Source of the DNA: Spirochaetota bacterium
GTDB taxonomy: Bacteria > Spirochaetota > UBA4802 > UBA5550
Assembly: GCA_963663865.1 (NCBI GenBank)
Contig: OY760686.1
Location: 512,001-576,000, forward strand
Direction of reading: 5' to 3'
Length of the DNA stretch: 64,000 bases
The notes under the pieces are model-generated. The model made no database searches. It worked only from the letters and a program-made list of their open reading frames with translations, and was not told the DNA's origin. Shown here piece by piece: positions 39,329 through 61,905 of the stretch; position 1 is the stretch's first letter, and each line of letters starts with the position of its first letter. The position numbers and the translations under genes were made by a program.

Positions 39329-40804
39329 TCAGAAGTTTATCCCGGCTCTCAGAGAGTAGTATGTTTCCTTCTGTAAGCTGCCCGGTATGTTAAGGGATGA
39401 TATCTCCGGAATTACTACGGGCTTCTCGTATTCGTAGGTATGTATTTTGTAGTCTGCATCGCCCGAATAGGCATGAACAAGTTCGGCAATCTTGACTGCC
39501 GCGAGGGCGCCTATTGAAAAGAGCGGGATATTGCCGCTGCCGCGGTTGTATACCGCGGTTCCGGCAAGGGCCATTTCGGTGAGATAATACGCCCATCCCG
39601 CAGTCCTTTTTCCCTTGTACATGAGGCCGGTACCCGGAAAAATCAGAGAGAGTGCGAGCGCTGTCTCGTCGCGGTAGAGGTAGAAGGGCGGTAATGTGTC
39701 GTTGTTCCGGTAGAGGACTGCCAGCTGGTCGAAGTAGGCTGCCGTAATTGTCAGAGGCAGCGTTGACCACAGAAATACGTGCAGGTCTTTCTGTCTGTCA
39801 GACTTGTCGCTGTCCTGAATCCACGGGAAGAAGTTCATAGAAAAGCCGGACGCGGCCGGGAGTGCCGCAAGCTGGCCGGTGATCAGGGCGGTGGAAAAGA
39901 GCACTCCTGGTACGTCGGCCTTTTTGTTCTTAAAGCCGAGATAACCAGAAGCTAAAAACGATCCGTATCCCGGCAGGCAGATATTTGCTCCCGGGTTGAT
40001 GATGCAGATACTTTCCACGAAGCGTTTTTCCGAGTCGCTGTTTTTGAGTAGTGTCGATTCAGGGCCGAACTGGCTGTTTATATTGCGCTGTATCCGCCTG
40101 CCGATTTCCTCAATGGCGTTTTTAGTATCGGGATATATGTCTATGCTTATTCTGCCGGCCGCCACCGCGCCCGGAAGGCCGGTTATCACGGAATGATATC
40201 TTCCGGCGCTGATTACATTAAAAGGCCTGGCCGCGGCACTGTAGCTCCCTTCGGTGATTCCGTGCCACTGTCCGGCTTTGACGGTCAGTGTGCCTTCGGA
40301 AGCTGATATAATATCGGCTATAACCGGGAGGCCTTCGTGCAGATGTACCGTTTCGAGGGCAAACCTGAGGGGTACATTCGACAATATTCTTGTTTTGAAG
40401 CTGACTGTTCTGCCGAGCTGTTGAAGTGTCTTTTCCACCGGGACGAACTTCATGTCGCCTATTACGGCCGCTCCGTATGGACGGACGGTTATAAGGATAT
40501 ACGCCTTCAGCCCGAGGGCCGAAGCGGCTTTTGCGGCCGATTCTGTCCCGGTGACAGCTCCATTCGCGGCCGTGTAGTCCCTCAGCCTGCCGGGTTCAAC
40601 CGGCAGCATGCGGCCCAGCTCTGAAAGCGTTGTGTAGATTGAGCGTTCTGATTCAAGCATGACAGCATTCAGCTGCGGAGATGCGCCGGGAATACTGAAA
40701 ACGGCAATGTCCCCGCGTATCAAAGGCAGCTCCGCCGAAAAAAGCGGGCCGCTCATGGCGCAGATGAATGCTGTCAGTACTATTGCTTTGAGTGTATTAC
40801 ACAT
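39329..40804 (-). CDS. Hypothetical exported membrane protein
   Basis: Signal peptide, SLIFPGTGLMYKG motif, C-terminal Phe; similar to 52607..54091. Confidence 0.65.
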   Translation of the reverse strand: MCNTLKAIVLTAFICAMSGPLFSAELPLIRGDIAVFSIPGASPQLNAVMLESERSIYTTLSELGRMLPVEPGRLRDYTAANGAVTGTESAAKAASALGLKAYILITVRPYGAAVIGDMKFVPVEKTLQQLGRTVSFKTRILSNVPLRFALETVHLHEGLPVIADIISASEGTLTVKAGQWHGITEGSYSAAARPFNVISAGRYHSVITGLPGAVAAGRISIDIYPDTKNAIEEIGRRIQRNINSQFGPESTLLKNSDSEKRFVESICIINPGANICLPGYGSFLASGYLGFKNKKADVPGVLFSTALITGQLAALPAASGFSMNFFPWIQDSDKSDRQKDLHVFLWSTLPLTITAAYFDQLAVLYRNNDTLPPFYLYRDETALALSLIFPGTGLMYKGKRTAGWAYYLTEMALAGTAVYNRGSGNIPLFSIGALAAVKIAELVHAYSGDADYKIHTYEYEKPVVIPEISSLNIPGSLQKETYYSLRAGINF

Positions 40805-41066
40805 GGCTGGAGGTAAGGTTATTGTTCAGCGCCTGCAAGTCAACGAAATAATTAAGGAGGCAGCGGGATGGGTGAGAGTCTCACGTTTAATTTATTTTCC
40901 GCTGAGCCTGATATAAAAATCGCCAACAGGCCATGCTCTGGGCTCAGAAAATAGCTTGACCATGACCCGGTATCCCGGAACTTTTACCTTTAGCAGTGGC
41001 CCGGCAGGAATAAGCGAATTGCTGGCGCTGAATTTATCAAAAGAAGCACATTAATGAGGAGTACAC

Positions 41067-42170
41067 ATGGCTTTACAGATAGGCATAGTCGGCCTTCCGA
41101 ACGTAGGCAAGTCGACGCTTTTTAATTCACTTAGCAAGGCTGCTAAGGCGGAGGCGGCTAATTATCCCTTTTGCACCATAGAGCCGAACAGCGCGATAGT
41201 TCCAGTTCCTGACGAGAGGCTTGATAAGTTGGCTGAGATAGTAAAACCTCAGAAGGTTTTAAACGCAACCGTTGAGTTTACCGACATTGCCGGACTGGTA
41301 AGGGGCGCCTCAAAGGGAGAGGGCCTTGGAAACCAGTTCTTATCGCATATCCGCGAAACCTCGGCTATCGTTCATGTAGTCAGGTGTTTTGACGATGAGA
41401 ATGTTATTCATGTTGACGGTTCTGTCGATCCGCTGAGGGATATTGATGTTATCAATACGGAGCTTTTGCTTGCCGACATTCAGACTCTGGAAAACAGGGT
41501 CGTAAAGCTGGAAAAACAGGCCCGTGGAGACAAGAAGGTGCAGCCGCTTGTTGACATGACGCGCTCAATGATTGAACACCTGAACAGCGGTGAACCGGCC
41601 AGGACATTCAGGGATCACGGCAGCGATGTCTACGAGGCCTTTGCTTCGGAGGTTCGTCTGTTAACCGATAAGCCTGTAATCTTCGCGGCCAACGTGGATG
41701 AGAATTCACTTGCCGGGGGCAACAGCTATGTTGAGGCGGTTAGAACAAGGGCCGCTGACAGCGGCAGTGAGGTGGTTGTAGTCTGCGCGAACGTCGAGGA
41801 AGAGCTTGTTGATATGGAAGAAAGCGACCGGATGGAGTATCTCGAAAGCCTTGGGGCAGACGGTGAGAGCGGGCTTCATAAAATAATAAGCAAGGGATAT
41901 GCCGCTCTGGGCCTCATCAGCTACTTTACGGCCGGTGTAAAGGAAGTCAGGGCATGGACAATAGAGAATGGCTGGAAGGCGCCGAAAGCGGCATCTGTCA
42001 TTCATAACGACTTTGAGCGCGGTTTCATCCGTGCTGAGGTTATTTCTTACGCTGATTTTGTTGAGTATAAGGGCGAGGCCGGAGCCAAAGCCGCAGGAAA
42101 AATGCGGACTGAGGGCAAGGGATATACCGTCCAGGACGGCGACGTTATGCATTTTCTTTTTAATGTGTAA
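41067..42170 (+). CDS. ychF: Redox-regulated ATPase YchF
   Basis: GIVGLPNVGKSTLFN, NYPFCTIEPN, DIAGLV, EVRAWT, C-terminal VQDGDVMHFLFNV. Confidence 0.97.
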   Translation: MALQIGIVGLPNVGKSTLFNSLSKAAKAEAANYPFCTIEPNSAIVPVPDERLDKLAEIVKPQKVLNATVEFTDIAGLVRGASKGEGLGNQFLSHIRETSAIVHVVRCFDDENVIHVDGSVDPLRDIDVINTELLLADIQTLENRVVKLEKQARGDKKVQPLVDMTRSMIEHLNSGEPARTFRDHGSDVYEAFASEVRLLTDKPVIFAANVDENSLAGGNSYVEAVRTRAADSGSEVVVVCANVEEELVDMEESDRMEYLESLGADGESGLHKIISKGYAALGLISYFTAGVKEVRAWTIENGWKAPKAASVIHNDFERGFIRAEVISYADFVEYKGEAGAKAAGKMRTEGKGYTVQDGDVMHFLFNV

Positions 42171-42174
42171 GACG

Positions 42175-42870
42175 GCACTGCGTTTAATCGGGACGGTTTA
42201 GACTGTCCCCTGCCATTGCGCTGTGCGGAGCGCTTTTTTGGCAGGGAGCCTGCCGTCTATTTTCACACTGGGAGTGTGAGATTCTTTTTTTCGTCACTTT
42301 CGTCCGGGCGAAAGTGGTCGACGGCTATTTCGACCTCCTGTCGGCCGTCGACACTTAAGCATCCTGCTTTTCGACCAATGTCTTTTGGCGCCGGAAAGGC
42401 TTGGCTTTTGTTGTTACTCGACTGTTGCAGCGCCGTTATCATCATCCTGATGAAACGGCGCCCGGGCGATTTACTTCCGTGAAAATCGCACTTATTGAAT
42501 TGTTGAGGCAGTAAGCCTATAGTTTCATAATTCTGCCACTGTGTTCCATCCCGCCGATGGGACATCCATGTCCTAAGAATTAGTCACTGTGAATTATTCC
42601 AAAGTGAGATAGCTTTATTATGTCAGGCTCCTTCGGAGCCGGAAAGCGCAGCGTCCTGCTGCGCTTGAGTGATTATGCATTTTGTCATATTACGTTATCA
42701 TATTGATATAACCGTCATTAGGTTCTGGTACCCGGTAGAGCCGGCCAATTTGGACGGCTCTACCTCACCGTGAAACGCAGCATCCCGCGGATGACAAGAT
42801 GAATCGGGAAGCCCAAGGCCGGAACATTGGCGGCAGGTTTTTTTAACCACTTTTTTTATGAAAGAAAAGT
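42175..42870. repeat. Mosaic palindromic (REP/BIME-like) repeat cluster A
   Basis: Modules shared with 44687-44860 and 50639-51345. For example, 42555-42675 vs 50864-50984 show 7 mismatches in 121 nt by manual alignment. Confidence 0.85.
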
Positions 42871-43080
42871 AGCGAATAATTTCTTTGACAGTAATAGTGA
42901 AATATAGATAGGCAATCGGGATTGCATATCATTTTCTTGTACTGTCGATTATTTTATTATGACCATTATCGAAAAAATGATAAAAAGGCTATCGAAGTAT
43001 TATTCGTGTGAGTCTCAAAGTTGTAAGTGAATAAGCATGTCCTGTGCGTAAAAATAATAGAAAAGGAAAATTTGATAGTA

Positions 43081-43506
43081 ATGACTAAAACGACACCTAT
43101 TATTATCATCATAGCTATTTTCTTAAATGCATGTTCTTTACAAATACATGGAAGTAAATGCGAAAAGCCGAAGATCACAAGAATTGGGAATTATACGAAG
43201 AACAGTAAAAGTAACATCATTCGCCATATTGATGATAGTGAGTACAATAAATACGATATTATAGCTCAATATGAATACAGCAAGATAATCCCTATTAAAT
43301 TATACTTTAACAGGACCTTGATTGATTTTATAAACAGAGAAGTCGAACAGTCAAAAATGGCAGCCCGTAGTCTTGGGGGTGACGCTCTTTACATGCATGG
43401 GTACAAGAAGGAATCTGGTTCAGTATATATCGAGCCAAAGATAGAAAAAGGGAAAATATTCTTTAAATTTGATGTCTTAAAACACAGGTTTATGACTCAT
43501 AAGTAA
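43081..43506 (+). CDS. Hypothetical lipoprotein
   Basis: MTKTTPIIIIIAIFLNAC lipobox; AARSLGGDAL motif. Confidence 0.6.
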   Translation: MTKTTPIIIIIAIFLNACSLQIHGSKCEKPKITRIGNYTKNSKSNIIRHIDDSEYNKYDIIAQYEYSKIIPIKLYFNRTLIDFINREVEQSKMAARSLGGDALYMHGYKKESGSVYIEPKIEKGKIFFKFDVLKHRFMTHK

Positions 43507-43540
43507 GTAGAAATTGAGAATTAATATCTAAGAGGACTCA

Positions 43541-44635
43541 ATGAAAAAAGCTGTGTTTTTAATAATAATCTTTCACATATTTTTGGGTTGCGACGGCGGA
43601 CTTTTTGATAATAAGGATGACCGACCTGAAGATATTTCACTGATTGATGGCATGGTAATTGCCGGCAAATTTGTTCCTAAACCTCAATACCCCCAGTTAA
43701 ATGGGGTTACTGCTTATAGTTATAACAACATGTGGACTTTTTCTTATGACGATGAATTCCGTACAAATCCGCGCGTTCTTTGTGCTTCAGCAAATGGTGA
43801 AGATATATATCTTGGCGGGGGCTATGCCAGTGGGCAGAATGGATACTGGAAAAACGGGAACTTTATTGAAATAGATAATGTCCAGTTTGGATTTGTTCGT
43901 GATATTCTTTTCAGCAATACTGTAATGTTCGCTGTGGCAGATGTAGAAAACTGGTATACTCAAATTATACGCAATGCAGGGGTATACCTTTTTTCCTTTC
44001 AGTCCGGGAATGACGAGCTATTAGAAATTAAGAGATGTGGAGAATTGACCGATGCAGGGTGTATTGTATTAAATGGGAAAGACATTCTGGTTGGGGGAAG
44101 GATTGCGGGAGCCCCGGCATACTGGGACAAAGATGAAATCCATAATATGAGCATTACTGACAGAGAGTCAATTTCAGGAATGATTTTGACAATGGCGGTT
44201 TATGAGGATGATGTATATGCCGGGGGCATAGTACTGGATCATGACGACAATCCTCTTTGCGGTTATTGGAAGAATTCTGAATGGGTGCCGCTTGAAACTC
44301 CCGTGGGAGGATATGTACAATCTATTTCTGTTAATGATGATGGCCTGTTCGTTGGGATAAAATACGATTCAAATAAAAAGTCTGGCTATTGGTTTAACGA
44401 TATCTGGTATGATTTGGATGATCCTTATGGAAATTATTTCAGTATGACTTCTATGGCAGTTGATGGCACCGATGTATATGTTTCAGGTTATTCAGCTATA
44501 TGGGACGAAAGCGTTTCAGAAGCCAATGAATGCAGAGGAGGATATTTCAAAAATAGTGAATGGAATGAATTGAGCAGTGAAGTTGCAGGTGAGGAGTATG
44601 AATACTTTTATCCTGCGGAAATAATTGTGAAGTAA
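43541..44635 (+). CDS. Lipoprotein with repeated GYWKNG-type (beta-propeller-like) units
   Basis: Lipobox FLGC. Repeats DIYLGG..GYWKNG, DILVGG..AYWDKD, DVYAGG..GYWKNS, GYWFND, DVYVSG..GYFKNS. Confidence 0.75.
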   Translation: MKKAVFLIIIFHIFLGCDGGLFDNKDDRPEDISLIDGMVIAGKFVPKPQYPQLNGVTAYSYNNMWTFSYDDEFRTNPRVLCASANGEDIYLGGGYASGQNGYWKNGNFIEIDNVQFGFVRDILFSNTVMFAVADVENWYTQIIRNAGVYLFSFQSGNDELLEIKRCGELTDAGCIVLNGKDILVGGRIAGAPAYWDKDEIHNMSITDRESISGMILTMAVYEDDVYAGGIVLDHDDNPLCGYWKNSEWVPLETPVGGYVQSISVNDDGLFVGIKYDSNKKSGYWFNDIWYDLDDPYGNYFSMTSMAVDGTDVYVSGYSAIWDESVSEANECRGGYFKNSEWNELSSEVAGEEYEYFYPAEIIVK

Positions 44636-44686
44636 ATTCATTTTGCCACTTTTTTGTAGCGCCCAAAAACACGATTGGTTTTTTAC

Positions 44687-44860
44687 GGCAGGGAGCCTGC
44701 ATCCATTTTCACACTGAGAGCGTGGCGCTGCGTTTAATCGGGACGGTCTCGACCGTTCCCCTGTCACTGTTTTCTGTGCAGAGCGCACGGGCATTTCTTT
44801 TGCCACTGCGCTGCGTGACTCGCTTTTCTTTTAGCAGTGAGCCTGTTGTCTATTTTTACG
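44687..44860. repeat. Mosaic palindromic repeat cluster B
   Basis: GGCAGGGAGCCTGC..TTTTCACACTG (44687-44724) and CTGCGTTTAATCGGGACGGT (from 44728) are also present in cluster A. Confidence 0.8.
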
Positions 44861-45056
44861 CCTCGCTTGAAAAACCTCAGCCATTGCGAGAAAACATAGT
44901 CTTGAATAGTATCGTGTTCTCGTCATTTAGTATTATTGGCTGCTTTGACGCTTACAGTGTAACTGTTTAATTTTAATCTGAGAATACCCTCCCTGTCTTT
45001 CTTCTTATCCCTCGAAAATTATTCAAACGACAAATAATTTATGTAATTTCTTCTAC

Positions 45057-45099
45057 CCTTGTCGGGAAGGACGACAGCCCGGGAAGGGTGTGATATTTT
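45057..45099 (+). promoter_or_regulatory. Putative regulator site overlapping -35, with -10 TATTTT
   Basis: CCTTGTCGGGAAGGACGACA contains TGTCG-N7-CGACA and is 18/20 identical to 61859-61878(-). ACGACA-N17-TATTTT spacing. Confidence 0.55.
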
Positions 45100-45201
45100 T
45101 CCTTAAAGTTTAGGTTTTGTGTGAACAGGTGTAAACCCTTTCTGTGGCGCGGTTCGTCGTGATTGATTTTGGCTTATAATTAAGTCGTTGAGGGAGGTTA
45201 T

Positions 45202-46377
45202 ATGCAATCAGCTAATCATCAGATTGATGTCTTTCCGGATGTAGTAGTAAACCCGGCGGGTGCGGTTGTTATTAATAAAGACAACATTGAAACTTCAATA
45301 AGATTTATAGCTAATGATGGAAAAATAAAAGTAATCTCAAAAGTCTTCCCGCGTCTAACAGCTATTACAAAAGAGATCAAAAAATGGCTTAATAATAACA
45401 TGGTAAAAGATGTTGCTGTTCAAGGAGGCGGATGTAGCTGGAAGATGATCTGGAATAGTTTTGAAGATTCATTTAACCTTCATCTTACTCACTTCAATGA
45501 TCAAGTGTCCATGCCAGAAACTCCTCACCAAAAAAAAAGCGAATCTGAAAAAATATCCGAGCTACTTCAGTATGGCTTATTAAAAATAAAATTTATCCCT
45601 GACAGACTTACAAGAGAGTTGCGGGATCTTACAAGAATGCGGGAGGGCTTGATTGAAAGAAAATCAGTGCTGGGATGCAGAATTCAGTCAATTCTGGAAG
45701 AAGTCGGTATAACACCTGCGTCTTTAAGGAGCTATAATAATAGACCAATTTATAGAAAGGCTGGTTGGCATAGTGTAGTTGAAAATCTGATAGAAATTTG
45801 TGATTCCAGTCCTGTTTCAGAGCACAGTAAATACATTTTGGATATTCTTGCATCTGATTATAAGAAGGCTGATAAGAGTATTATGCGGCTTTCAGCCAGG
45901 ATAGCTCTTATGAGTGGAAGATATGAAAAACAGATTTCAGGACTTATGCAAATACCAGGCCTCTCAAGAAGGTACGCAGAGAGGATATTGGCCGAGACAG
46001 GAACTGATTACGATCGTTTTGATTCGCATAAAGCTCTGTTGGCGTGGGGTGGTATGTTTCCCCCACCTGCTCATGGTGATGGGGAAAGAACTATGGGGAA
46101 AAACGGAAAGGAATGGTTTAAACGTGCAATTGCCGATTCCGCCATTGCTGCCGCAAATGCTGCAAACTCAACACTTGCAAGAAAGTATACCATGCTTGAA
46201 TCTGAATATGGTATCAGAAAAGCTATGTCAGTTATTAAGCAGGACGTGGTCTATCTGATTTACAATATTATCAGGGAAGGAAAGAGCTATAGTGAATTAA
46301 GAGACTTTATCGAATTTAGTGAAGATACACATACATTATCAAAACCATATAAAATATGGGATGCCTCAATACCATGA
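45202..46377 (+). CDS. IS110-family transposase/recombinase homolog, apparently catalytically inactive
   Basis: IS110 signatures FIPDRLTRELRDLTRMR and LMQIPGLSRRYAERILAETGTDYDRFDSHKALLAWGGMFP. DEDD positions and the Tnp-domain Ser appear substituted. GGGAGG RBS. Confidence 0.82.
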   Translation: MQSANHQIDVFPDVVVNPAGAVVINKDNIETSIRFIANDGKIKVISKVFPRLTAITKEIKKWLNNNMVKDVAVQGGGCSWKMIWNSFEDSFNLHLTHFNDQVSMPETPHQKKSESEKISELLQYGLLKIKFIPDRLTRELRDLTRMREGLIERKSVLGCRIQSILEEVGITPASLRSYNNRPIYRKAGWHSVVENLIEICDSSPVSEHSKYILDILASDYKKADKSIMRLSARIALMSGRYEKQISGLMQIPGLSRRYAERILAETGTDYDRFDSHKALLAWGGMFPPPAHGDGERTMGKNGKEWFKRAIADSAIAAANAANSTLARKYTMLESEYGIRKAMSVIKQDVVYLIYNIIREGKSYSELRDFIEFSEDTHTLSKPYKIWDASIP

Positions 46378-46518
46378 TATCATGAATATAAATTCAGTTT
46401 CAGACAGCGCATTGAGATACAAATTCCCTATGTTCGAGGGTATTTTTCTTAATTTAAACAACAGCGGAGTCTGTGCTGATTATATATATTTTTATTAAAC
46501 TATTTTAGGAGGATTTTT

Positions 46519-48693
46519 TTGATGAAAAAAATTCTGGTACTTTTAAGTCTCTCCTGCGCCTTTTTCTTTGGCTGCGGGGATGACGGGGACGATTCGAAGA
46601 AAGTGGATGATGACACGTGTGTAAGTGTCTACTGTGATGAATCGGGATTACTCGAACAGCCAGCGATTGGAGTCAGAGACGGAAGCGGGAAAACGGTTAT
46701 TACGGTCGATGGTTACCAGTTTAAGGATTCTAATGGTAACGGAACTCTGGATGCCTACGAGGATTGGAGGCTTTCCGTCTCGGAGAGGGCAGAAGACTTG
46801 GTTGCAAGAATGACGGCTAATGAAAAGGCAGGATTTATAAATGCTCCCAGCGCGAGTGGAATGACAACAACAACAGGATCTCTTAAGAACGATGATGGTA
46901 CCTGGATCGAAACAAATTCAGGATATACATCTATTACGACTCTTTTTAGAAGATTCGGAATGATCACTTTGTCATCCTCGGATCAACCGGCACGGATTGC
47001 AACTTATAATAATAGTTTAAATGAAATCTGTGAAGGAGTATTGCGGGAGGATGGTTCAACTGGACTTGGAATTCCATTTGTCACCTGCACCAATCCGACT
47101 CATGGAACCAACTCTAACTCAACAAGTTTAATTTCTGCCTGGCCGTATGCAATTGGTCTTGGCGCTATTACAGATTCTTCTGTTATTGAAAAATATGCTT
47201 CAACAGTGAGGGCTGAGTTGACGGCGCTGGGAATCCGTTCTTATTACGGACCGCTCGCAGATGTTGCAACCGAGCCAAGGTGGGGCCGACAGAATGAAAC
47301 TTTTGGATCAAGCCCTGAAAGGGTGGCATCTTTTTCAACGATTGTGGTAAGAGCCCTTCAGGGAGGGAATTCTCTCAAGCCGGGAGGCATTGTATGCGCG
47401 ATCAAGCATTTCCCTGGGCATGGAGCTCAGTGGCGGGGTTATGACTCACATTACAAAATGGGTCAATATGTTGTCAACCCAGGAGACAACTTCGATATGC
47501 ATATTGCTCCGTTTGAGAAGGTATTCAGAGAAGTTGCTCCGGCTGCATGTATGCCGTGTTACGCAATTTACCAGGATCAGCCTTTTGAGAAGGTATCTCC
47601 AGGTTACAACGCAGAAATTATGAATGATCTGGGACGCGATCAACTTGGTTTTACTGGTTATTACACTTCAGACTGGGGGATTTTCGGAATGGGTGGAAGC
47701 CTTACTGCACCTCCTAGTACCGCAACTTTTGCAGCATGGGGTGTTGAGGGGTTGAGTTTAGAAGAAAAATTAGGCAAAGCCATGGATGCCGGAATGGATC
47801 AGCTTGGTGGCCATGGAAGTATAATGGATATAATAAGTGCGTTAAGTTACGGTAATCTTTCCGAAGAGACTCTGGACAGGGCGTGTGTCAATATCCTGAA
47901 AGGATATTTCACAATGGGTCTTTTTGAGAATCCCTATGTTGATGTGGATGCCGCTACGGATATTTGTAATACTGCAGAAAGTCAGGCTGCAGGACTGGAT
48001 GCAATGCACAAATCTATTGTTATGGTAAAAAACAGCGCTACGTTGCCGGCAGCATCGGGGATCAGTATTTATTATGACGGTACTGTAGATGGATCGGATG
48101 CAACCCAGGCTACATTTATCAATGAAACGTATGGTGCAACAGTTGAAACTGATATCACACAGGCTGACATTGCTGTAATAAGGATAAACGGACCCACACA
48201 TAGCAGGTACTATCCGAATGAGCCTACATTTTTGGGTTATCTGGGACCAAGCAGTCGTTCTCTGCAGTTTTTAGATGAAGAGCCAGACGTGCAGTATGGT
48301 GGTTCATACACTGTAGATTATACTGATGCTCTTGGTAACGTCCATTATGGAGTTATGTTGTCAACAAACATTGACCAGTATGAGAAAGTTATGAACGCAA
48401 AAAAAGAGATTATTGACGCTGGAGCTTCCACCAAACTTGTCGTGCTTGTTAATGCAGACAGGCCTCTGGTCATGAAAGAGTTTATAGATTACGTGGATGC
48501 CGCTTTTCTGACATTTGGTGCCAGCGATCAGGCTGTTCTGGATATTCTATTCTCAAAAGAGGGCCTTAAGCCTACTGGGGTTCTCCCTTTTGAAATACCC
48601 TCTTCTGATGATCAGGTTGAAGCACAGCTCGAAGACCTTCGAGATGATACATCTAATCCTCTATATAAGGCAGGTTATTCTCTGACTTATTAA
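46519..48693 (+). CDS. Glycoside hydrolase family 3 lipoprotein, paralog #3
   Basis: Lipobox FFGC, DSNGNGTLDAYEDW, EPRWGR, IKHFPG, MPCY, YTSDWG, PTGVLPF. Confidence 0.9.
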   Translation: MMKKILVLLSLSCAFFFGCGDDGDDSKKVDDDTCVSVYCDESGLLEQPAIGVRDGSGKTVITVDGYQFKDSNGNGTLDAYEDWRLSVSERAEDLVARMTANEKAGFINAPSASGMTTTTGSLKNDDGTWIETNSGYTSITTLFRRFGMITLSSSDQPARIATYNNSLNEICEGVLREDGSTGLGIPFVTCTNPTHGTNSNSTSLISAWPYAIGLGAITDSSVIEKYASTVRAELTALGIRSYYGPLADVATEPRWGRQNETFGSSPERVASFSTIVVRALQGGNSLKPGGIVCAIKHFPGHGAQWRGYDSHYKMGQYVVNPGDNFDMHIAPFEKVFREVAPAACMPCYAIYQDQPFEKVSPGYNAEIMNDLGRDQLGFTGYYTSDWGIFGMGGSLTAPPSTATFAAWGVEGLSLEEKLGKAMDAGMDQLGGHGSIMDIISALSYGNLSEETLDRACVNILKGYFTMGLFENPYVDVDAATDICNTAESQAAGLDAMHKSIVMVKNSATLPAASGISIYYDGTVDGSDATQATFINETYGATVETDITQADIAVIRINGPTHSRYYPNEPTFLGYLGPSSRSLQFLDEEPDVQYGGSYTVDYTDALGNVHYGVMLSTNIDQYEKVMNAKKEIIDAGASTKLVVLVNADRPLVMKEFIDYVDAAFLTFGASDQAVLDILFSKEGLKPTGVLPFEIPSSDDQVEAQLEDLRDDTSNPLYKAGYSLTY

Positions 48694-48717
48694 GAAAGAC
48701 TATTCTGAAGTATTCCT

Positions 48718-48750
48718 GCTCCCCGGCATTTCCTGTCGGGGAGTGTTTTA
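48718..48750 (+). terminator. Hairpin between GH3 #3 and AraC
   Basis: GCTCCCCGGCA-TTTCC-TGTCGGGGAGT followed by GTTTT. Confidence 0.6.
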
Positions 48751-48913
48751 GAAAATATCTGAAACTGCCAGCCAGCAGTTGGCAGTTGTGGATGAGGTAA
48801 GTCTGAGTTTCTGTGTCGATATATTTGCTTTGGGGTTGAATCTGTCATACTTTCTTGATGCCATCGGGTTTCTGAAAAAACTAAAATTCAGCGTTGTGGA
48901 TAAAGTCGAAATA

Positions 48914-50098
48914 ATGATTAAGTATAATATAATTACGATAATAGCAATACTCGGATTTGGTCAGGGAGTATTTCTTGCAATTGTTCTGGCAACATCAAAG
49001 CAGAACCGTCAGTCCAACAGGATACTATCAATTTTTATGTTGATACAAGCCGTTGTTTTAGCTTCAAACTGTGTTTTTTCGCCGGATGTACAGTTGAACC
49101 TGCCGCATCTTTTACGAATCGACTGGCCGCTCTCAATGGCTTTTGGGCCTATTTTTTATTTTTATTATTCCTCCATTCTTGAAAAAAATTTCAAGTTTAA
49201 AGCTTACCATATTCTTCTTTTTATTCCATTTTTTTTATCAGTGCTGTTTCTAATGCCTCTATTTGTGCTGGATGGAGCCGCTAAATCTGATATCCTGCAT
49301 GCATCCTTTAATGGGTTGCCTTTGCATGCCTCGTATTCCAGGAATTTCAAGTATGTAGTTCCGGCGCTTCAGATGCAGATGATTATTTATTGTTGGATAT
49401 GTATTTGCAGGATAATAAAATACAGAAAAGAACTTTATGATTATAAATCAAATATAAGTAAAGAGAGTCTTTCATGGCTTTTATACCTTTCCATAATAAT
49501 GATTGTAACATACATACTCAATTTTATTGGTTTTATAGTAACGATTTATTTTCTTGATAAGTCTCTGAGTTACGTTTATGTCCATGATAGCATTGGTGCC
49601 ATGATAGCCCGTAATATAGCCCCTCTTGAGTTTGCTTTGCTCACATACATGATTGGTTATAAAGCCTTAAAACAGAGTGAACTATCAATAATCAGAGAAT
49701 TCCCGAAGACGCAGAGGAAATATGAGAAGTCATCCTTAACCGATGAAGAGAGCAAATCTATTATGAGTGAACTTTCCACCATCATGACAGAGGAAAAGCC
49801 CTATATGGATTCAAATCTTACAATTATTTCACTCGCGGAAAGACTATCAATTAGCCGTCATCATCTGTCTCAGGTTATAAACAGGGAAATGGGTCAGAAT
49901 TTTTATGAATTTATTAATACCTATCGTATTTATGAAATACAATCACGACTTCTGATTGATATGGGTGGGAGTGAAAATATTCTTGACGTTGCCTTTAAAG
50001 TAGGGTTTGACTCCAAGTCGGCATTCTATAAATACTTCAGGAATATTATGGGTATAACACCCAAACAATATATTGCAGGTAACAAGTTGAACAACTAA
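48914..50098 (+). CDS. Membrane-anchored (about 7 TM) AraC-family transcriptional regulator
   Basis: Hydrophobic N-terminal helices. C-terminal HTH HHLSQVIN...NFYEFINTYR...VAFKVGFDSKSAFYKYFRNIMGITP. Confidence 0.9.
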   Translation: MIKYNIITIIAILGFGQGVFLAIVLATSKQNRQSNRILSIFMLIQAVVLASNCVFSPDVQLNLPHLLRIDWPLSMAFGPIFYFYYSSILEKNFKFKAYHILLFIPFFLSVLFLMPLFVLDGAAKSDILHASFNGLPLHASYSRNFKYVVPALQMQMIIYCWICICRIIKYRKELYDYKSNISKESLSWLLYLSIIMIVTYILNFIGFIVTIYFLDKSLSYVYVHDSIGAMIARNIAPLEFALLTYMIGYKALKQSELSIIREFPKTQRKYEKSSLTDEESKSIMSELSTIMTEEKPYMDSNLTIISLAERLSISRHHLSQVINREMGQNFYEFINTYRIYEIQSRLLIDMGGSENILDVAFKVGFDSKSAFYKYFRNIMGITPKQYIAGNKLNN

Positions 50099-50120
50099 AC
50101 ATCATAAGCATAATTGCTGA

Positions 50121-50259
50121 TCAAAAGTTATAAAAAAAACCCACAGCAGGGGATTTTAAAAGTGTTATCGTTTCTTTCAGCTTTCCTATATCCTTGGACC
50201 TGATCGGGTCAGTTTTTTACGTCTTTTTTGAATTGATTCGACCGGATAATTGTCAGCAT
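50121..50259 (-). pseudogene. yafQ: Truncated, frameshifted YafQ/RelE-family toxin
   Basis: The ATG overlaps the antitoxin stop (TAATG). It reads MLTIIRSNQFKKDVKN*, and the sequence continues in a shifted frame as KDIGKLKETITLLK, which resembles the YafQ N-terminus. The C-terminal half is absent. Confidence 0.7.
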
Positions 50260-50522
50260 TAGATTCCAAGATCGTCGAAAAGATCTTCAACTTTTTCGAA
50301 TTTATTCGAGTTCCTCTTTTTCCTGGAATCATCGATAGCCCTTAAAGTAATCTGATTTGGAAGCTTTACGCTAAAGGGTATTCCCTGGTTTGCAACAATT
50401 TGATGATAATACATATTTATTGCTGTAGAGTGATTGAGACCCAGCTTATCAAGGATCTTTCCAACCTCATCCTTGAGTTCTTTCTCTGTTCTGACGGATA
50501 ACGTTGTATTTGCCTGTGACAT
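50259..50522 (-). CDS. dinJ: RelB/DinJ family antitoxin
   Basis: SVRTEKELKDEV..ILDKLGLNHSTAINMYYHQIV...GIPF...EDLFDDLGI. Confidence 0.88.
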   Translation of the reverse strand: MSQANTTLSVRTEKELKDEVGKILDKLGLNHSTAINMYYHQIVANQGIPFSVKLPNQITLRAIDDSRKKRNSNKFEKVEDLFDDLGI

Positions 50523-50638
50523 GGTATTGCCTTTTTATGTAAAAGTATTTCTTATAATGTAACACATAATAATTACATTGTCAATGCATTATATGTTATT
50601 TGTATTTATGTTGTGACATGTTGTCAATGACAAGGCGT

Positions 50639-51345
50639 CTGCCGTCTTTTTTCACGCTGAGAGCGTGGCACCTCTTTTGCCGCTTTTTGACCGGTTTTTT
50701 TGCCGTAGGCTTTAACTCGCTCAGCTGTGCGACTCGTTTTTCTCCTGGCAGGGAGCCTGCCGGCCATTTTCACACTGGGAGTGTGAGACCCTTTTCCGTT
50801 ACTTTCTTTTTTCGTGCCAAAAAAGAAAGTAACCAAAGAAAAAGGGCATGCCTGCGCGGCATGCGATGGGACATCCATGTCCTAAGAATTAGCCACTATG
50901 AATTATTTCAAAGAGTGATAGCTTTATTATGTCAGACTCCTTCGGAGCCGGAATGCGCAGCGTCCTGCTGCGCTTGAGTGATTAAATTATTTATTTCATG
51001 AAGTAACTGATTGTTTTATTCCGCCATTGTGTTTTGCCGACTCATCGCAGTCATACGCGGAAGAAGGGCGAGAATGTCTGAGCCTGCGTAGCAGGCGAGT
51101 TTCGCAGCCCCCGCGGATGACAAGAGGAGGAGGGAAGCCGAAGGCCGGAACATTGGCGGCAGATTTCTTTTGACCACTTTTCTTATAAAAGAAAAGTGGT
51201 GAGAAAACCCTGATGAAACGGCACCCGGACGATTTGCTTCCATGCAAATCGCACTGGTTGAGTCGTTGTTGTAGGGTGCATCCAATGTCTTATCCCGACA
51301 TTTTTTTGCCGACGGCTATTTCGATTTCCTTGCCGCTGTCGGCAC
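50639..51345. repeat. Mosaic palindromic repeat cluster C
   Basis: Same modules as cluster A in a different order, plus hairpins ACTTTCTTTTT..AAAAAGAAAGT and GCCTGCGTAGCAGGC. Confidence 0.85.
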
Positions 51346-51442
51346 TGTGACATCGTGTCAGGCGCCCCTCTTCAAATCTCCTTGACACTTAACTGTGTTC
51401 TGATAGTATCTCTTTTAGCATTAAGGATACAGGGAGAAAACA

Positions 51443-51706
51443 TTGGGCGTTAACGAACTGAGAGCACTCATCTTTAAAGCCGTTGAGCAGCTGAATATGT
51501 ATGAGCTTTCGCCGACCGGGCAGAAGCTTGTAGCGCATTACTTCAACAGTTCCAGTGCGGAGACTACCTACCAGAGGGCGCTTGACGCAATTGAACGTTA
51601 CATCCCGGAGAGGCTCCCTTCTCCCGAAAGGCCCGCCTCCGCGCGGATTGAAGCTTTGCTTGCCGAACTCAAACGGGAAGCTGACAATATTGATTCTGAA
51701 GGATAG
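51443..51706 (+). CDS. Small hypothetical protein
   Basis: 87 aa, TTG start after AGGGAG, stop abuts the next start. Confidence 0.6.
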   Translation: MGVNELRALIFKAVEQLNMYELSPTGQKLVAHYFNSSSAETTYQRALDAIERYIPERLPSPERPASARIEALLAELKREADNIDSEG

Positions 51707-51707
51707 T

Positions 51708-52610
51708 ATGAAACCGACATTACTTATACTCGCTGCGGGAATGGGCAGCCGCTACGGAGGGCTCAAGCAGCTTGACAGCTTCGGTCCCTCGGGCGAGGCA
51801 ATTATTGATTACTCAATCTACGACGCGGTCAGGGCCGGGTTCGGGAAGGTGGTCTTTGTCATAAGGGAAGGTTTTTCTGAAAGCTTTAAGGCGGCTTTTG
51901 AACCCAAGCTCGCAGGCCGCATCGAAACCGCTTATGTCTATCAGGAACTCGACAGGATTCCCGAGGGGTTTAAGGCCCATCCTGAGAGGGTGAAGCCCTG
52001 GGGAACAGGGCATGCCGTTCTTATGGCCGCCGATGTCATTGACAGCCCCTTCGCTATTATTAACGCGGACGATTTCTACGGGAGACAGGCCTTTGAGGCG
52101 CTTGCGTCACACATGACTTCAGGCTCTCCCTCCAATGAGTACTGCATGGTCGGATACAGGCTTGCCGGTACGCTCTCAGAGAACGGTTCGGTTTCACGCG
52201 GGGTCTGCGTTACAGATGAAAGCGGCTATCTCACGGATATTACTGAGAGGACTGATATCAGACGGGAGAACGGGGGGATATTCTTTCACGAGGACGGAAA
52301 GTCATTTCCTCTCACAGGAAATGAAAATGTTTCAATGAACTGCTGGGCGTTTCAGCCCGACTTTTTTGGATACCTGAGCGAAGGCTTTCAGGATTTTCTG
52401 AAGAGAAGGGGGACTGAGCTTAAATCGGAGTACTTTTTCCCGTTCGAGGTTTCCGACAGGCTCCAAAGGGGACAGATTAAAGTCAGGGTGCTCCCGACTG
52501 AGTCCGAGTGGTTCGGCGTCACTTACCCGGAAGACAGGCCCGGTGTGGAGAAGAGCCTGGCCGGCCTTATCCGGAGAGGAGAGTATCCCGTATCGCTCTG
52601 GGCTTCTTAA
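51708..52610 (+). CDS. Sugar-phosphate nucleotidyltransferase family protein
   Basis: MKPTLLILAAGMGSRYGGLKQ, PWGTGHAVL, INADDFYG, WFGVTY. Confidence 0.88.
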   Translation: MKPTLLILAAGMGSRYGGLKQLDSFGPSGEAIIDYSIYDAVRAGFGKVVFVIREGFSESFKAAFEPKLAGRIETAYVYQELDRIPEGFKAHPERVKPWGTGHAVLMAADVIDSPFAIINADDFYGRQAFEALASHMTSGSPSNEYCMVGYRLAGTLSENGSVSRGVCVTDESGYLTDITERTDIRRENGGIFFHEDGKSFPLTGNENVSMNCWAFQPDFFGYLSEGFQDFLKRRGTELKSEYFFPFEVSDRLQRGQIKVRVLPTESEWFGVTYPEDRPGVEKSLAGLIRRGEYPVSLWAS

Positions 52611-58177: not shown

Positions 58178-59335
58178 CTATTGCACAATCGTTTTAAGAT
58201 ATTCGCCCGGTGCGGTCCCCATTATTTTTTTGAAGGCCGAGTAGAAGGCCGACTTTGAATCAAAGCCGGATTTGAAGGCTATTGACAGGATGTTTGTCTG
58301 GTCTCCTGATGATGTTTTAAGCATCTCGATAGCGGCCCTGATTCTGTAGCTGTTGACAAAAAGGTAGAAGTTGCTTCCTGTCTTGATGTTTATTGCCTGT
58401 GATAAGTGATGCTTGCTCACGTTAAGCTTCTCTGCAAGGGCCTCAATCGTAAGGTCAGGGTCCATGAAGAGCTTTTCCTCTTCCATTTTGCTGCAGGTCT
58501 GGTTGAAAAGAGAGTCAACTTTGTCATCGTTAAGCCCGGCCTTTCTGTATTTAACACTTTTTGAACTCAGCCGGCTGTCTGCTTCTGTAAGGGCTGACTC
58601 GTTCTGTTTAAGGCTTTTATATCCTATAATGTAGAGAATTACGGTAAAACCGACAACAGGGATGAAAGCGGTATCTTTCCAAGGAATCTTAATAAAACCG
58701 GCAACTGTAAGAACAACTCCGAAGAAGTTTACAAGATAGTTAGGAATCATGAGCACTGACATCAGCAGGAGCCAGTTAAGCGACTTGTTCTCCAGAGATG
58801 AATGCGATTGAAGCAGGGCCTTTCTGTACTTCAGTATGCGCCGTATTGAGATTGTGATGTATATCATCATCTGAATCTGTATCCCGGGGACGCTCAGCAT
58901 TGAGCTTGCGGGAAGAGAATTACCGTCAGGCAGAACAGCTTCTCCGAATATTCTCGCTTTGATAATCAGTTCTTTCTCCTGTCCTGAAAGCATGTAGATG
59001 CCGAGATTGTCTAAAAAAGACAGCAGGGCGGTCGAAAAAAGCAGCAGGTGAACTGGTCTTATGCGAAATGTCCTGTCAATCATTGCTCTTATATAAAAGT
59101 AGAAGAGCGGCCCAAGGGCCATTGAAAGCGGCCAGTCAACGAGAAAGAGGTGAGGGAAAGGCAGCCTTATGCTGTATGTGACAACTGAGTTTGCCGCGAT
59201 TACTATGGCCTGTATGAACATGAATGCCGCGAGGATGCGGTTCGCGTATCTGTTCTTCCTGGAGTTGGCAAGAAGGAAGAAGAAAAAGAAACCCTGTGTT
59301 ATCCCGAGAAGCGCTATTGCTGAAGTTATGTTCAA
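58178..59335 (-). CDS. Membrane-anchored AraC-family regulator (paralog of 48914..50098)
   Basis: DWPLSMALGP, QIQMMIY and HTH IAFKSGFDSKSAFY all closely match the other AraC. Confidence 0.9.
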   Translation of the reverse strand: MNITSAIALLGITQGFFFFFLLANSRKNRYANRILAAFMFIQAIVIAANSVVTYSIRLPFPHLFLVDWPLSMALGPLFYFYIRAMIDRTFRIRPVHLLLFSTALLSFLDNLGIYMLSGQEKELIIKARIFGEAVLPDGNSLPASSMLSVPGIQIQMMIYITISIRRILKYRKALLQSHSSLENKSLNWLLLMSVLMIPNYLVNFFGVVLTVAGFIKIPWKDTAFIPVVGFTVILYIIGYKSLKQNESALTEADSRLSSKSVKYRKAGLNDDKVDSLFNQTCSKMEEEKLFMDPDLTIEALAEKLNVSKHHLSQAINIKTGSNFYLFVNSYRIRAAIEMLKTSSGDQTNILSIAFKSGFDSKSAFYSAFKKIMGTAPGEYLKTIVQ

Positions 59336-59466
59336 GCGTCATACTCCTTTTTTCGGGGTATTAGAACGTCTGCAGTTTACAAAACTGCCGAATGGCTCAC
59401 CGGTGTTTGAAGAGGGCTGTATCTCGGGCCGCATTTCCAATGCCGGCTGTTATCTTCGCATAAAGA

Positions 59467-59491
59467 GCCGGGGAGTTGAGGGCTCCCCGGC
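59467..59491 (-). terminator. Hairpin between GH3 #4 and AraC
   Basis: GCCGGGGAG-N7-CTCCCCGGC. Confidence 0.6.
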
Positions 59492-59517
59492 AATCACTAT
59501 TTTAGGATAGAAGAATT

Positions 59518-61724
59518 TTACTGATATGTCAAACCGAAACCTGCCTCAAAGGCCGGATTCAGCGTGTCATCTGCTACGTCCTCAAGCTGGGCTTCCACTT
59601 CAGTGTCAGAAGAGGGCAGCTCAAATGGCAGTTTGCCTGATGGTTTCAGCCCCTCGTAGGCGAAGATCATGTCAAGAACAGCCTCATCAGTTGCTCCGAA
59701 AGACAGGAGAAGCGCGTCAACCTTATCAACATATTCTTTGACAACAACAGGCCTGTCAGCGTTGACGATTACTACGAGTTTGGTCACTGCTGAGGCGTCA
59801 TCAATCGCCTTTCTCGCGCTGAGGACCTTTTCAAGCTGACCGATATTGCCGGCTATTTCAACGTCTTCGTACAGGACACCAAGAGGATCGGTATAATCCG
59901 CGGGAGTAATGCCGTACTCTGTATCCGGAGCTTCATCGATGTACTGAAGCGACCTGCTGCTCGGACCGACATAGCCCATAAAGGCAGGTTCAGTCGGATA
60001 GAATATTGAATAGGAAGGTCCGTTAATACGGATAACAGCGATGTCGGCCTGTGTAATGTCAGTAACGACTTCCGCTTCGTACCCGCCTTCGATGAAGTCG
60101 GCAAAGACGCTATCAGTACCGCTGGAATTCCCTTCGTAGTAAATCTTTGAAGAGGCAGAGGCAGGCAGGGCTGAGCTGTTTTTCAGCAGGACCATTGATT
60201 TGTGCATGGCGTCAAGACCCGCTGCTTTGTTTTCGTCACTGTTGCAAATCGAAGCTGCAGCTTCCACGTCGGTATAGGGGTTTTCAAACATACCGATCGT
60301 GAAATATGATCTGAGGATATTACTGCATGCCCTGTCGAGGTCGTCCTCGGTCATAAAGCCTTCAGTGATCGCGCCTTTGATGTCATCAAGTGTTCCGTGT
60401 CCGCCAAGCTGATCCATGCCCGCTTTGATTGCCTTCCCTATTTTCGCTTCGGGAGAGAGATCCTCTACTCCCCAGGAAGCGTACGAGCCGGGGATAATCA
60501 TCCCATAACCGCTGTTATATATTCCAAAGAGTCCCCAGTCGGAGGTGTAAAAGCCTTCGAATCCGAGCTCATCGCGCCCGAGGGTTGTGAGTATCTCTTC
60601 ATTGAATCCCGCGGCTACCTGCTCGAAGTCCTGGTCCTTGTAAATAGAATAGCAGGGCATTGAACCGGCAGCATTTGCTTCGGCAAATGCCTTCTGGAAT
60701 GGATAGACGTGCTCATCAAAGTTGTCTCCGGGATTTACGACATATTGGCCTAATGCGTAGTGCGAATCGTATCCTTTGACCTGAGCACCGTGGCCGGGGA
60801 AATGCTTTACCGTACAGATGATGCCGCCGGGCTGAAGAGAGTCGCCGCCCTGGAATCCCTTGATGAGTTCTACAATGTGTTCAGCTATGGTTTCAGAGTC
60901 TGATCCCATGGTTTCATTTATACGCTGCCATCTTGGTTCTGTAGCGAGGTCGGCAACGGGTCCGAAAAGGCACCTGATACCGAGGGCTTTGAACTCCGCT
61001 TTTGCTATAGACGCGAAGTCCTTTGTTACTTCGACGTCATTCACCGCACCCAGGCCGATCGCGAAAGGCCACTGGGATATGTTTGATGTGGCGTTGTTGT
61101 TAGTGCCGTGTACGGGGTTTGAGCTGACAACAAAGGGAATGGCGAGCGAGCTTGCCTCGCAGAGCTTATTCAGGTTGTTGATATAAGCAGCAGTTGCTTG
61201 AGGAAGAGCCGGCGAACTTAGCATTCCGAACCTTCTATGTAAGTCTGTAATATCAGTAATATCTGTGCTGTCTTCTGCTATTGAGCCGTCAGGAGTTTTT
61301 ACACCTGCGATTGAGGGCGCGTTGATAAAGCCTGCTCTTTCGTCAAGAGACATCTTGCTGACAAGGTGTCCGCTGCTCTCTCGCTGACGCTGAGTCTCCA
61401 GTCCTCGTAGTCGTCAAGTGCCCCGTTACCGTTTAGGTCCTTAAATGTGTAGGTAACGGCGGTTCCTTCCGAGTCTGTTACGTCAACAGTCAGTTTGTTT
61501 TTCGCTACCCCTTCTCCGATGACGATTTCGGGTTGAGCAAATACACCGTTAACACAGTACACGCTTTCACCCACGGTACATGCTGTTCCGTCTGGATAGG
61601 TAATCTTTTCCTCTTTGTCGTCGTCATCATCGCCGCAGGCGGTGAACAGCATCGACAGGGACAGGAAGCAGAAGAGCATCATTGATAGTGCCCTGAATGA
61701 GACTGAAACGTTTTTTTGCATCAT
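59518..61724 (-). pseudogene. GH3 lipoprotein paralog #4, split by a 2-nt frameshift
   Basis: The N-terminal ORF (ATG 61724, lipobox FTAC) and the C-terminal ORF 59518..61353 join if the extra AC at 61366-61367 (GAC-AC-CTT-GTC-AGC-AAG-ATG) is removed. That gives ERAADLVSKM, matching ERAEDLVARM of paralog #3. Confidence 0.85.
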
Positions 61725-61835
61725 AAGCCTCCAAAAAAATAGTGAGTTGTAGGGCTGGGAACGGTACGGACTCAAATCTCCTGAAAATTACGCTATCGGC
61801 AGGCAGACGGATCCCGGACTGACACAGCCTGTCGC

Positions 61836-61878
61836 ATAATAAAGCGGATTTTTGCGTTTGTCGTCCTGTCCGACAAGG
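61836..61878 (-). promoter_or_regulatory. Putative regulator site overlapping -35, with -10 TATTAT
   Basis: Minus strand CCTTGTCGGACAGGACGACA-N17-TATTAT; matches 45057-45076. Confidence 0.55.
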
Positions 61879-61905
61879 AAGGACTTCTTTTTCAGGAAAG
61901 GCGGA

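Follow-up and report, generated by a model that had tools for sequence, protein, structure and literature searches.

In a stretch of 64,000 nucleotides (nt) from a Spirochaetota genome (positions 512,001 to 576,000 of contig OY760686.1, assembly GCA_963663865.1; hereafter referred to as the window), we analysed a gene of the IS110 recombinase family that is located on the plus strand at positions 45202-46377. The gene starts with ATG, runs for 391 codons with no stop in frame and is preceded by a Shine-Dalgarno sequence, GAGGGAGG, at 45190-45197 on the same strand, 4 nt before the start codon. Both the translation and this sequence confirm the initial annotation of the locus, which had described an uninterrupted open reading frame (ORF) of 391 amino acids (aa) with a strong ribosome-binding site. 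The gene is followed on the plus strand by a gene for a GH3 glycoside hydrolase (46522-48693; PF00933 and PF01915) with a lipoprotein-type signal peptide (MKKILVLLSLSCAFFFGCG), and by a gene for an AraC-type regulator (48779-50098). Pfam places an HTH_18 domain at the C-terminus of this regulator (residues 352-432), and an alignment of seven module paralogs revealed a hydrophobic N-terminal region of about 300 aa, in which several membrane helices were predicted by eye.

The genome, a single contig of 3.16 Mb with 45.9% G+C, contains nine genes of this kind, referred to as A557 (the gene at 45202-46377), B719, C600, D1075, E91, F62, G57, H43 and I218. The best explanation overall, which we hold at about even confidence, is that A557 is a domesticated, catalytically dead member of the IS110 family that is located in glycan-utilisation modules. 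Domestication is well supported and A557 is very probably a selected, non-recombinase derivative, while a role in the regulation of its own module is put forward tentatively.

IS110 scaffold and active site

The IS110 Tnp domain model PF02371 matched residues 248-329 of A557 with an E-value of 2.6e-8 (34.6 bits, cut-off 21.3). The model for the DEDD domain, PF01548, scored 20.2 bits, below its cut-off of 29, with only the final third of the model aligned, and the NCBIfam IS110 model NF033542 matched residues 43-361 with 70.1 bits, below its cut-off of 140. A profile of A557 and its relatives, hereafter the dead family, was also aligned with hhalign to a profile of 25 canonical homologs. This alignment covered 368 columns and residues 8-375 with a probability of 100 and an E-value of 2.2e-59, and it spanned the whole N-terminal RuvC-like domain. 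A557 is therefore a full-length IS110 homolog, with a probable RuvC-like domain at its N-terminus. No matches were obtained in a search of PDB with the A557 sequence alone; profiles that included the A557 protein matched the IS621 structure 8wt6 (E = 2.3e-13).

To locate the catalytic columns, we anchored them to IS621 (PDB 8wt6) by the profile of canonical homologs, at the motifs GIDTAK, IEATG, KTDTVDA and YESGSS. The IS621 catalytic residues at these columns are D11, E60, D102, D105 and S241, and mutation of any one of the five abolishes recombination by IS621, as reported in PMC11208158. The columns were compared in an alignment of 137 rows, consisting of 125 canonical comparators (the first 125 of 127 search matches of 360-460 aa, with shorter and longer ones excluded) and 12 dead-family rows (the eight alignable paralogs and four relatives from other assemblies). 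Among the comparators, all five residues were present in 109, four in 12 (five of these with Ser replaced by Thr), three in 3 and two in 1. A557 has none of the five and carries V23, Q74, K111, E114 and G292 instead; eight of the 12 dead-family rows likewise have none and the other four have one, and no paralog holds more than one of the five.

The losses are distributed over all columns (all codons on the plus strand). The first Asp column of DEDD (IS621 D11), which corresponds to codon V23 at 45268-45270, has D in 118 of the 125 comparators and in 0 of the 12 dead-family rows. At the Glu column (IS621 E60; codon Q74, 45421-45423), E is present in 123 comparators and in a single dead-family row. 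The two Asp columns (IS621 D102 and D105; codons K111 to E114, 45532-45543) have D in 123 comparators each, and in 2/12 and 0/12 dead-family rows, respectively. At the column of the nucleophile (IS621 S241; codon G292, 46075-46077), the comparators have S in 117 and T in 5 cases, and one dead-family row has S. The dead family has no catalytic column with a conserved acidic residue or Ser. Its invariant residues (W, L, R, I, P, G, A, E and F) are all common to canonical IS110 proteins, and there is no new conserved nucleophile.

Outside the active site, the residues that are invariant across the eight aligned paralogs are W80, R145 and R147 (in RELRDLTRxR), I251, P252, G253, A259, I262, E265, G267, F273, W282 and G284. 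Most of these scaffold residues are also kept in at least 90% of the 137-row alignment with the canonical proteins. The Tnp domain is the best conserved part of the dead family, and the PF02371 match and the invariant residues place the retained Tnp/helix-hairpin-helix region of A557 at residues 248-329 (45943-46188, plus strand). Between the coiled-coil helices, A557 is shorter by about 15-25 residues compared to canonical IS110 proteins. The initial annotation had aligned the protein by eye with IS110 recombinases along its full length and had concluded that all catalytic residues were lost; the profile alignment and the IS621-anchored columns bear out both claims, and the motifs quoted for them (AGAVVINK, VQGGGCSW, HQKKSESE, FPPPAHGDG, RELRDLTR and IPGL...RILAETG) are all present in the protein. 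Since the defining catalytic features are lost, we do not class A557 as an IS110 recombinase, despite its IS110 scaffold.

Nine paralogs in GH3 modules

The nine matches in the genome are all open frames, 340-413 aa in length, with identities to A557 of 100, 52, 37, 31, 31, 31, 27, 25 and 23%. Pairwise protein identities among the paralogs are in the range of 19-52% and the G+C contents of the copies range from 30 to 53%. There is no near-identical copy of A557 elsewhere in the genome, the nearest copy being B719 at 52% identity, and no inverted repeats were found to flank A557. A check of the copy number had been proposed at the outset; it revealed no identical copies, and it also corrected the assumption of a single gene, since A557 belongs to a lineage-specific family of nine. 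None of the ten matches to NF033542 in the genome passed the cut-off (best score 119 bits), and hence there is no canonical IS110 in the genome to supply catalysis in trans. In a tree with eight canonical rows as the outgroup, the 12 dead-family rows formed a single clade, supported by an SH-aLRT value of 95 and set off by a stem of 1.28 changes per column. The simplest reading of this tree is one loss of activity followed by multiplication.

The strongest new result is the recurrent gene context. A GH3 gene is located next to the dead IS110 gene on the same strand at all nine loci, and the module contains an AraC regulator at eight of them. The placement of A557 at the head of a GH3-AraC gene set, as given in the initial annotation, is thus correct for this locus, and its GH3 part extends to the whole family; the AraC part does not hold at D1075, where this gene is missing. 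Six of the dead IS110 genes (A557, B719, C600, D1075, E91 and I218) are situated directly upstream of GH3, G57 and H43 are directly downstream of GH3 and upstream of AraC, and F62 is parted from the GH3 gene of G57 solely by an inserted IS3-type element. The I218 module also contains two genes for GH78 rhamnosidases.

The genome has 32 GH3 genes, most of them with lipoprotein signal peptides, and 14 paralogs of the membrane-anchored AraC type among 21 matches, three with internal stops. Eight AraC paralogs are located within 7 kb of a GH3 start, and seven of these eight are in modules with a dead IS110 gene. The eighth is in a decayed module with no trace of dead IS110, and every intact module with GH3 and AraC genes includes a dead IS110 copy. 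This decayed module is located on the minus strand of the window at about 58178-61700. Its GH3 gene is 57% identical to that beside A557, with the match split over two frames, and its AraC paralog is 43% identical and contains an internal TGA.

To quantify the constraint on the protein, we compared A557 with B719, which yielded a dN of 0.39, a dS of 1.71 and a dN/dS ratio of 0.23, the ratio being rough since dS is near saturation. For the adjacent genes, the same comparison yielded dN/dS ratios of 0.135 (GH3) and 0.25 (AraC). We also simulated neutral drift of the A557 ORF. The frame remained open in 27% of the runs at 98% nucleotide identity, in one of 2000 runs at 90%, and in none of 2000 either at 80% or at the observed identity of 61.6%. 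Selection is therefore needed to account for nine frames that are still open at 19-52% protein identity. Purifying selection is clear over the long term, and the nine intact paralogs, the dN/dS ratio and the simulation agree with the earlier suggestion of selection rather than neutral decay.

Orthologs, for which a search had been suggested, exist. The protein P0187 is an intact ortholog with 96% identity (379 of 394 aligned positions) and a 3-residue insertion. Three H43-type proteins in other assemblies are intact at 74-80% identity, one more is near-identical and N-terminally shorter, and P0040 is a further dead member from another assembly; P0187, P0039 and P0040, which are all recorded on contigs of one length (1.8 Mb), very probably come from one assembly. 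For a comparison of strains we used Logan contigs, which are fragmented and mixed with paralogs. The locus was covered by contigs of three other organisms, one of which was identical while the others differed at 18 of 1140 and 11 of 618 nt, the last with a 9-nt insertion that encodes the extra residues of the ortholog. The GH3 pieces from the same sequencing runs differed by 2.0-2.4% and 4.1%. Contig joints that skipped 703-1669 nt were rejected as paralog artefacts, with sides of only 25-39 nt and low likeness.

We also examined the distribution of the family. A profile of eight paralogs yielded 18,363 matches at E <= 0.001 in a search of 1.84 billion protein representatives. Only eight clusters outscored the canonical proteins, with 284-517 bits, followed by a drop to 228 bits; six of these were the proteins of this genome, one was H43-like and one was the dead protein P0040. 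Word-based searches of 5.8 billion clusters added two further H43-like proteins, and the rest carried both Pfam domains at no more than 32% identity. Among 122 genomes of the same order, the dead family was present in this genome only (423-530 bits). The next match in the order, at 188 bits, is canonical since it has GLDVHK, MESTG, KTDVMD and ESAGK. Five of 41 nearer genomes contained any match, none of them close, and the plasmid and phage collections contained only canonical IS110 proteins at 31% identity or less. The dead family is thus narrow in distribution and, across these searches, confined to this genome and a small number of close relatives.

Some observations concern the surroundings of individual copies. 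Two ORFs of 159 and 364 aa are located upstream of A557 on the same strand (43027-44635); they match nothing in Pfam and are missing from the surroundings of the other paralogs. No defence family was recognised by PADLOC in these two ORFs, in the A557 protein or in the AraC protein. The IS3-type element between F62 and the GH3 gene that F62 formerly preceded (genome positions 60502-61772) contains ORFs of 116 and 285 aa with rve and HTH_21 domains, and a 5S rRNA gene is located about 600 nt upstream of F62.

Flanking RNA and DNA elements

The flanks were searched for a putative RNA partner. Rfam at an E-value threshold gave a single chance-level match in the window at 40000-50000, and at gathering scores it gave a 5S rRNA and two tRNAs, and nothing else, in 116 kb around the other paralogs. 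Pairwise blastn searches of all paralog flanks yielded no sequence common to all, and only 130-200 nt are located upstream of three of the paralogs. The fold z-scores were -1.8, -2.2, +0.7, +0.6 and -0.8 for five of six flanks, and the sixth scored -4.2 for a terminator-like hairpin. This hairpin, GC-rich and 15 bp in length, is located between GH3 and H43 on the minus strand (genome positions 44032-44180), and H43 probably has its own promoter. Neither a tandem repeat nor an interspaced-repeat array was detected at 40000-52000 of the window, and a scan for promoters and terminators was not usefully above the shuffled background.

The sole conserved upstream stretch in the comparison of A557 and B719 is a hairpin-forming element of 21 nt, CCCTTGTCGGGAAGGACGACA, at 45056-45076 on the plus strand, 126-146 nt upstream of the start codon in both genes. 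Another copy is located at genome position 718827, and a third, with 3 mismatches, at about 61859-61879 of the window (minus strand), where it precedes a decayed GH3/AraC module without a dead IS110 gene. The three GH3/AraC modules concerned are related to one another, and the element is a candidate for an operator or an RNA element in them.

A second conserved sequence is the leader of the GH3 gene at 46499-46535 on the plus strand, which consists of ACTATTTTAGGAGG, a T run, ATG, an A run and TTCT. A leader of this type (ACTATTTTAGGAGGAGGA, T run, ATG, A run, TTCT) is common to many of the 32 GH3 lipoprotein genes, for example at genome positions 90518, 524874, 533593, 720284, 727148 and 1076773. 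Codons 2-4 can form base pairs with the spacer that follows the Shine-Dalgarno sequence, which leaves the start codon in the loop, and several GH3 leaders have matching changes on both sides (TTTGTTT with AAACAAA; AAATTTTTT with AAAAAATTT). Over its length of about 40 nt, the leader shows 90-95% identity between genes that encode GH3 proteins of about 30% identity. It may be a hairpin for translational control. The idea that it is specific to the modules with dead IS110 was rejected, since it is also present at GH3 genes without one. Both the 21-nt element and the leader are candidate cis-elements of the modules, and neither is tied to the protein.

The spacer upstream of A557 also contains dispersed repeat units of the REP-like type (44675-44861), identified with blastn. 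The units are about 40-60 nt in length and have more than 50 partial copies in the genome, often clustered (for example at genome positions 1689533-1689818, 982441-982772 and 768210-768799), and a 15-nt direct repeat is present three times in the cluster. The Logan contigs break at this site, with many loose ends and a raised depth. We rejected these repeats as a guide array, since they are dispersed at many unrelated sites and occur at no other paralog locus.

Possible roles and relation to known systems

Under the explanation that we prefer, a single event in this lineage would have cost an IS110-type recombinase its active site of DEDD and Ser residues, and it would no longer have moved. 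The dead recombinase would then have become a fixed gene of modules that centre on a GH3 lipoprotein, which is secreted, and an AraC-type regulator anchored in the membrane, and the modules would have multiplied and diverged to nine copies. As described in PMC11208158, IS621 dimerises through its coiled coil and binds the loops of the bridge RNA through its Tnp domain. By analogy, the retention of the coiled coil and the Tnp/helix-hairpin-helix region suggests as the most likely role, which we propose tentatively, a non-catalytic, dimeric binding of nucleic acid that would control its own module with the AraC partner. As a subunit dedicated to its own module, the protein would bind nucleic acid or serve as a scaffold without catalysis, and it would tune the expression of the adjacent GH3 operon jointly with the AraC protein; the fast divergence of the dead IS110 proteins would prevent cross-talk among the nine modules.

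Several observations weigh against this explanation. The D1075 module has genes for TetR and HEAT-repeat proteins and no AraC gene, and a dead IS110 neighbour is lacking at 22 of the 32 GH3 genes. I218, the ninth paralog, matched only marginally (E = 1.5e-4), its N-terminus could not be aligned, and its long branch was left unplaced in the tree. Inside the GKSG..W(L/F)KRA motif of the Tnp domain, A557 has lost 9 nt (residues S-G-M, at 46109-46110 of the window), and these three residues are kept by the ortholog in the sister strain and by most paralogs. Among close strains, a hand count gave about 6 replacement versus 5 silent changes in 618 nt, a ratio of about 0.4 based on a number of changes too small to separate it from 1; this presupposes that the ortholog in run X11 is of the P0187 type, as supported by the shared 9-nt insertion. 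Finally, the GH3 and dead-IS110 trees conflict. The GH3 proteins of D1075 and H43 are 70% identical and their dead IS110 proteins 23%, and these two dead IS110 genes lie on opposite sides of their GH3 genes.

The conflict extends to the divergence levels within a single module. For A557 and B719, the protein identities are 84% for GH3, 82% for AraC and 50-52% for dead IS110, and the dS values are 0.76, 0.43 and 1.71, respectively. In the GH3 tree, genes with a dead IS110 neighbour are interspersed among genes without one. Because of the tree conflict and the unequal dS values within one module, the module did not simply co-duplicate, which also counts against the explanation given above. Since GH3 and AraC are closer than dead IS110 and the trees are in conflict, it follows that exchange or conversion of GH3 and AraC has taken place between modules; the dead IS110 genes remain distinct and evolve fastest. 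The pattern fits dead IS110 as the specificity component of paralogous modules and leaves room for rival explanations.

According to one of these, the dead RuvC-like domain now serves to bind proteins, such as the AraC regulator at its cytoplasmic part, and nucleic acid is not the main ligand. We consider this unlikely on balance. It draws on Nop5, whose inactivated RuvC-like fold recruits fibrillarin according to PMC11213020 and PMC12045711, on the strict co-occurrence with an AraC paralog in the intact modules of this genome, and on the full-length retention of an N-terminal domain that is useless for catalysis. However, the D1075 module has no AraC gene to provide such a partner, and the order of the genes relative to AraC varies.

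It is more doubtful still that the proteins are RNA-guided DNA binders, with each paralog binding a bridge-RNA-like transcript of its own locus and repressing or activating a DNA site. The Tnp domain, which recognises the bridge RNA loops in IS621 (PMC11208158), is the best conserved domain, the 21-nt hairpin was kept amid otherwise diverged sequence upstream of A557 and B719, and precedents for exaptation are provided by Nop5 and Prp31 (PMC11213020) and by TIGR-Tas (PMC12045711). Yet the Rfam searches around A557 and over the 116 kb of the other paralog loci yielded no candidate, no flank is common to all paralogs, and no repeat array was found. The fold scores are weak, with the only strong one (-4.2) being terminator-like, three paralogs have 130-200 nt alone upstream, and the 21-nt element also precedes a module without dead IS110. 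In its broadest form, this would amount to a second, recent and purely bacterial exaptation of IS110, with nine dead recombinases that each use a locus-encoded RNA or hairpin element as programmable, insulated module switches; we assign a similarly low probability to this proposal.

An unorthodox recombinase or cofactor that shuffles or converts GH3 cassettes at the GH3 leader is very unlikely. The near-identity of the leader (90-95% over about 40 nt) in genes whose GH3 proteins are about 30% identical could be read in this way, as could the tree conflict and the lower dS values of GH3 and AraC than of dead IS110, which are expected if GH3 is exchanged. However, the catalytic columns have no conserved acidic residue or Ser and no new conserved nucleophile has appeared, the leader is also present at GH3 genes without dead IS110, and the tree conflict calls for no such enzyme, as it is explained by homologous gene conversion. 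Already disfavoured, and the least probable explanation, is that the copies are selfish relics of an active IS110 that once inserted site-specifically beside GH3 and are now neutral pseudogenes, open by chance. IS110 elements do insert at specific sequences, seven of nine copies occupy the same position with respect to the GH3 leader, the G+C contents of the copies range from 30 to 53% and the constraint among close strains is weak, with few changes. Against this, all nine frames are open at 19-52% identity, whereas 1999 of 2000 neutrally simulated frames had already been interrupted at 90% nucleotide identity, dN/dS is 0.23, the dead copies belong to a single clade and share its long stem, and the same scaffold residues are conserved in all.

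Returning to A557 as a probably domesticated, catalytically dead protein, its closest points of comparison are the IS110 recombinases themselves. IS621 (8wt6) and ISCro4 (9t56) have the same layout of a RuvC-like domain, a coiled coil and a Tnp domain, and A557 keeps the RELRDLTR and IPG..AE.I.AE.G motifs of these enzymes. Unlike them, it has all five catalytic residues replaced and scores below the NCBIfam cut-off, it has no near-identical copies, and no bridge RNA was found for it. TldR-type regulators are nuclease-dead TnpB proteins that act as RNA-guided repressors, with both guide RNA and target known. They follow the same logic of a dead transposon enzyme kept by host genes but belong to a different protein family, and neither a guide RNA nor a target was found here. 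Our literature search, over a limited library of articles, revealed no catalytically dead IS110 derivative that is kept by bacteria or linked to GH3 or AraC.

The RAYTs are the standard domesticated bacterial transposases, and PMC5581495, in which they are described, also reports that 66% of IS110 genes have a recent duplicate within the genome. By the criteria used in that study, A557 resembles the RAYTs in that it has no recent duplicates, is not found on plasmids, is under purifying selection and has a stable position among related strains. The RAYTs differ in that their catalytic residues are kept and they are usually single-copy, whereas the A557 family is dead and has grown into a set of old paralogs. 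TIGR-Tas systems, as presented in PMC12045711, are relatives of IS110 that also pair a non-cutting RuvC domain with an RNA-binding domain; they consist of Nop-domain proteins, in some of which the RuvC domain is predicted to be inactive. The Tas genes adjoin long interspaced-repeat arrays, however, none of which was found at A557, and A557 groups with IS110 proper.

Nop5 and Prp31 have been proposed as ancient exaptations of an IS110-like recombinase (PMC11213020). From the account given there, Nop5/Nop56/Nop58 and Prp31 share with A557 a dead RuvC-like domain, a coiled coil, a helical RNA-binding domain, the loss of the serine site and a non-mobile cellular role. They are archaeal and eukaryotic, ancient and universal, and act with C/D-box RNAs and fibrillarin. 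The A557 family, in contrast, is bacterial, young and confined to one lineage, has a direct match to PF02371 and is located in sugar-utilisation modules.

Among RNA-guided DNA enzymes, the IS110 recombinases form the newest class, and the exaptations proposed so far are very old (Nop5 and Prp31, with an evolutionary link to TIGR-Tas also proposed). The exaptation proposed here is recent, so that the homology is plain; the nine copies serve as natural replicates and their neighbours point to a phenotype in sugar use. The narrow distribution of the family limits the comparative power. If the proteins still bind nucleic acid, they would provide a natural, non-cutting bridge-recombinase scaffold, and if they bind the AraC protein instead, the RuvC fold would have been turned into a protein adaptor a second time. 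A family of programmable switches, if that proposal is true, would be a living intermediate of the path from IS110 to Nop5. The dead IS110 family illustrates how transposases are tamed.

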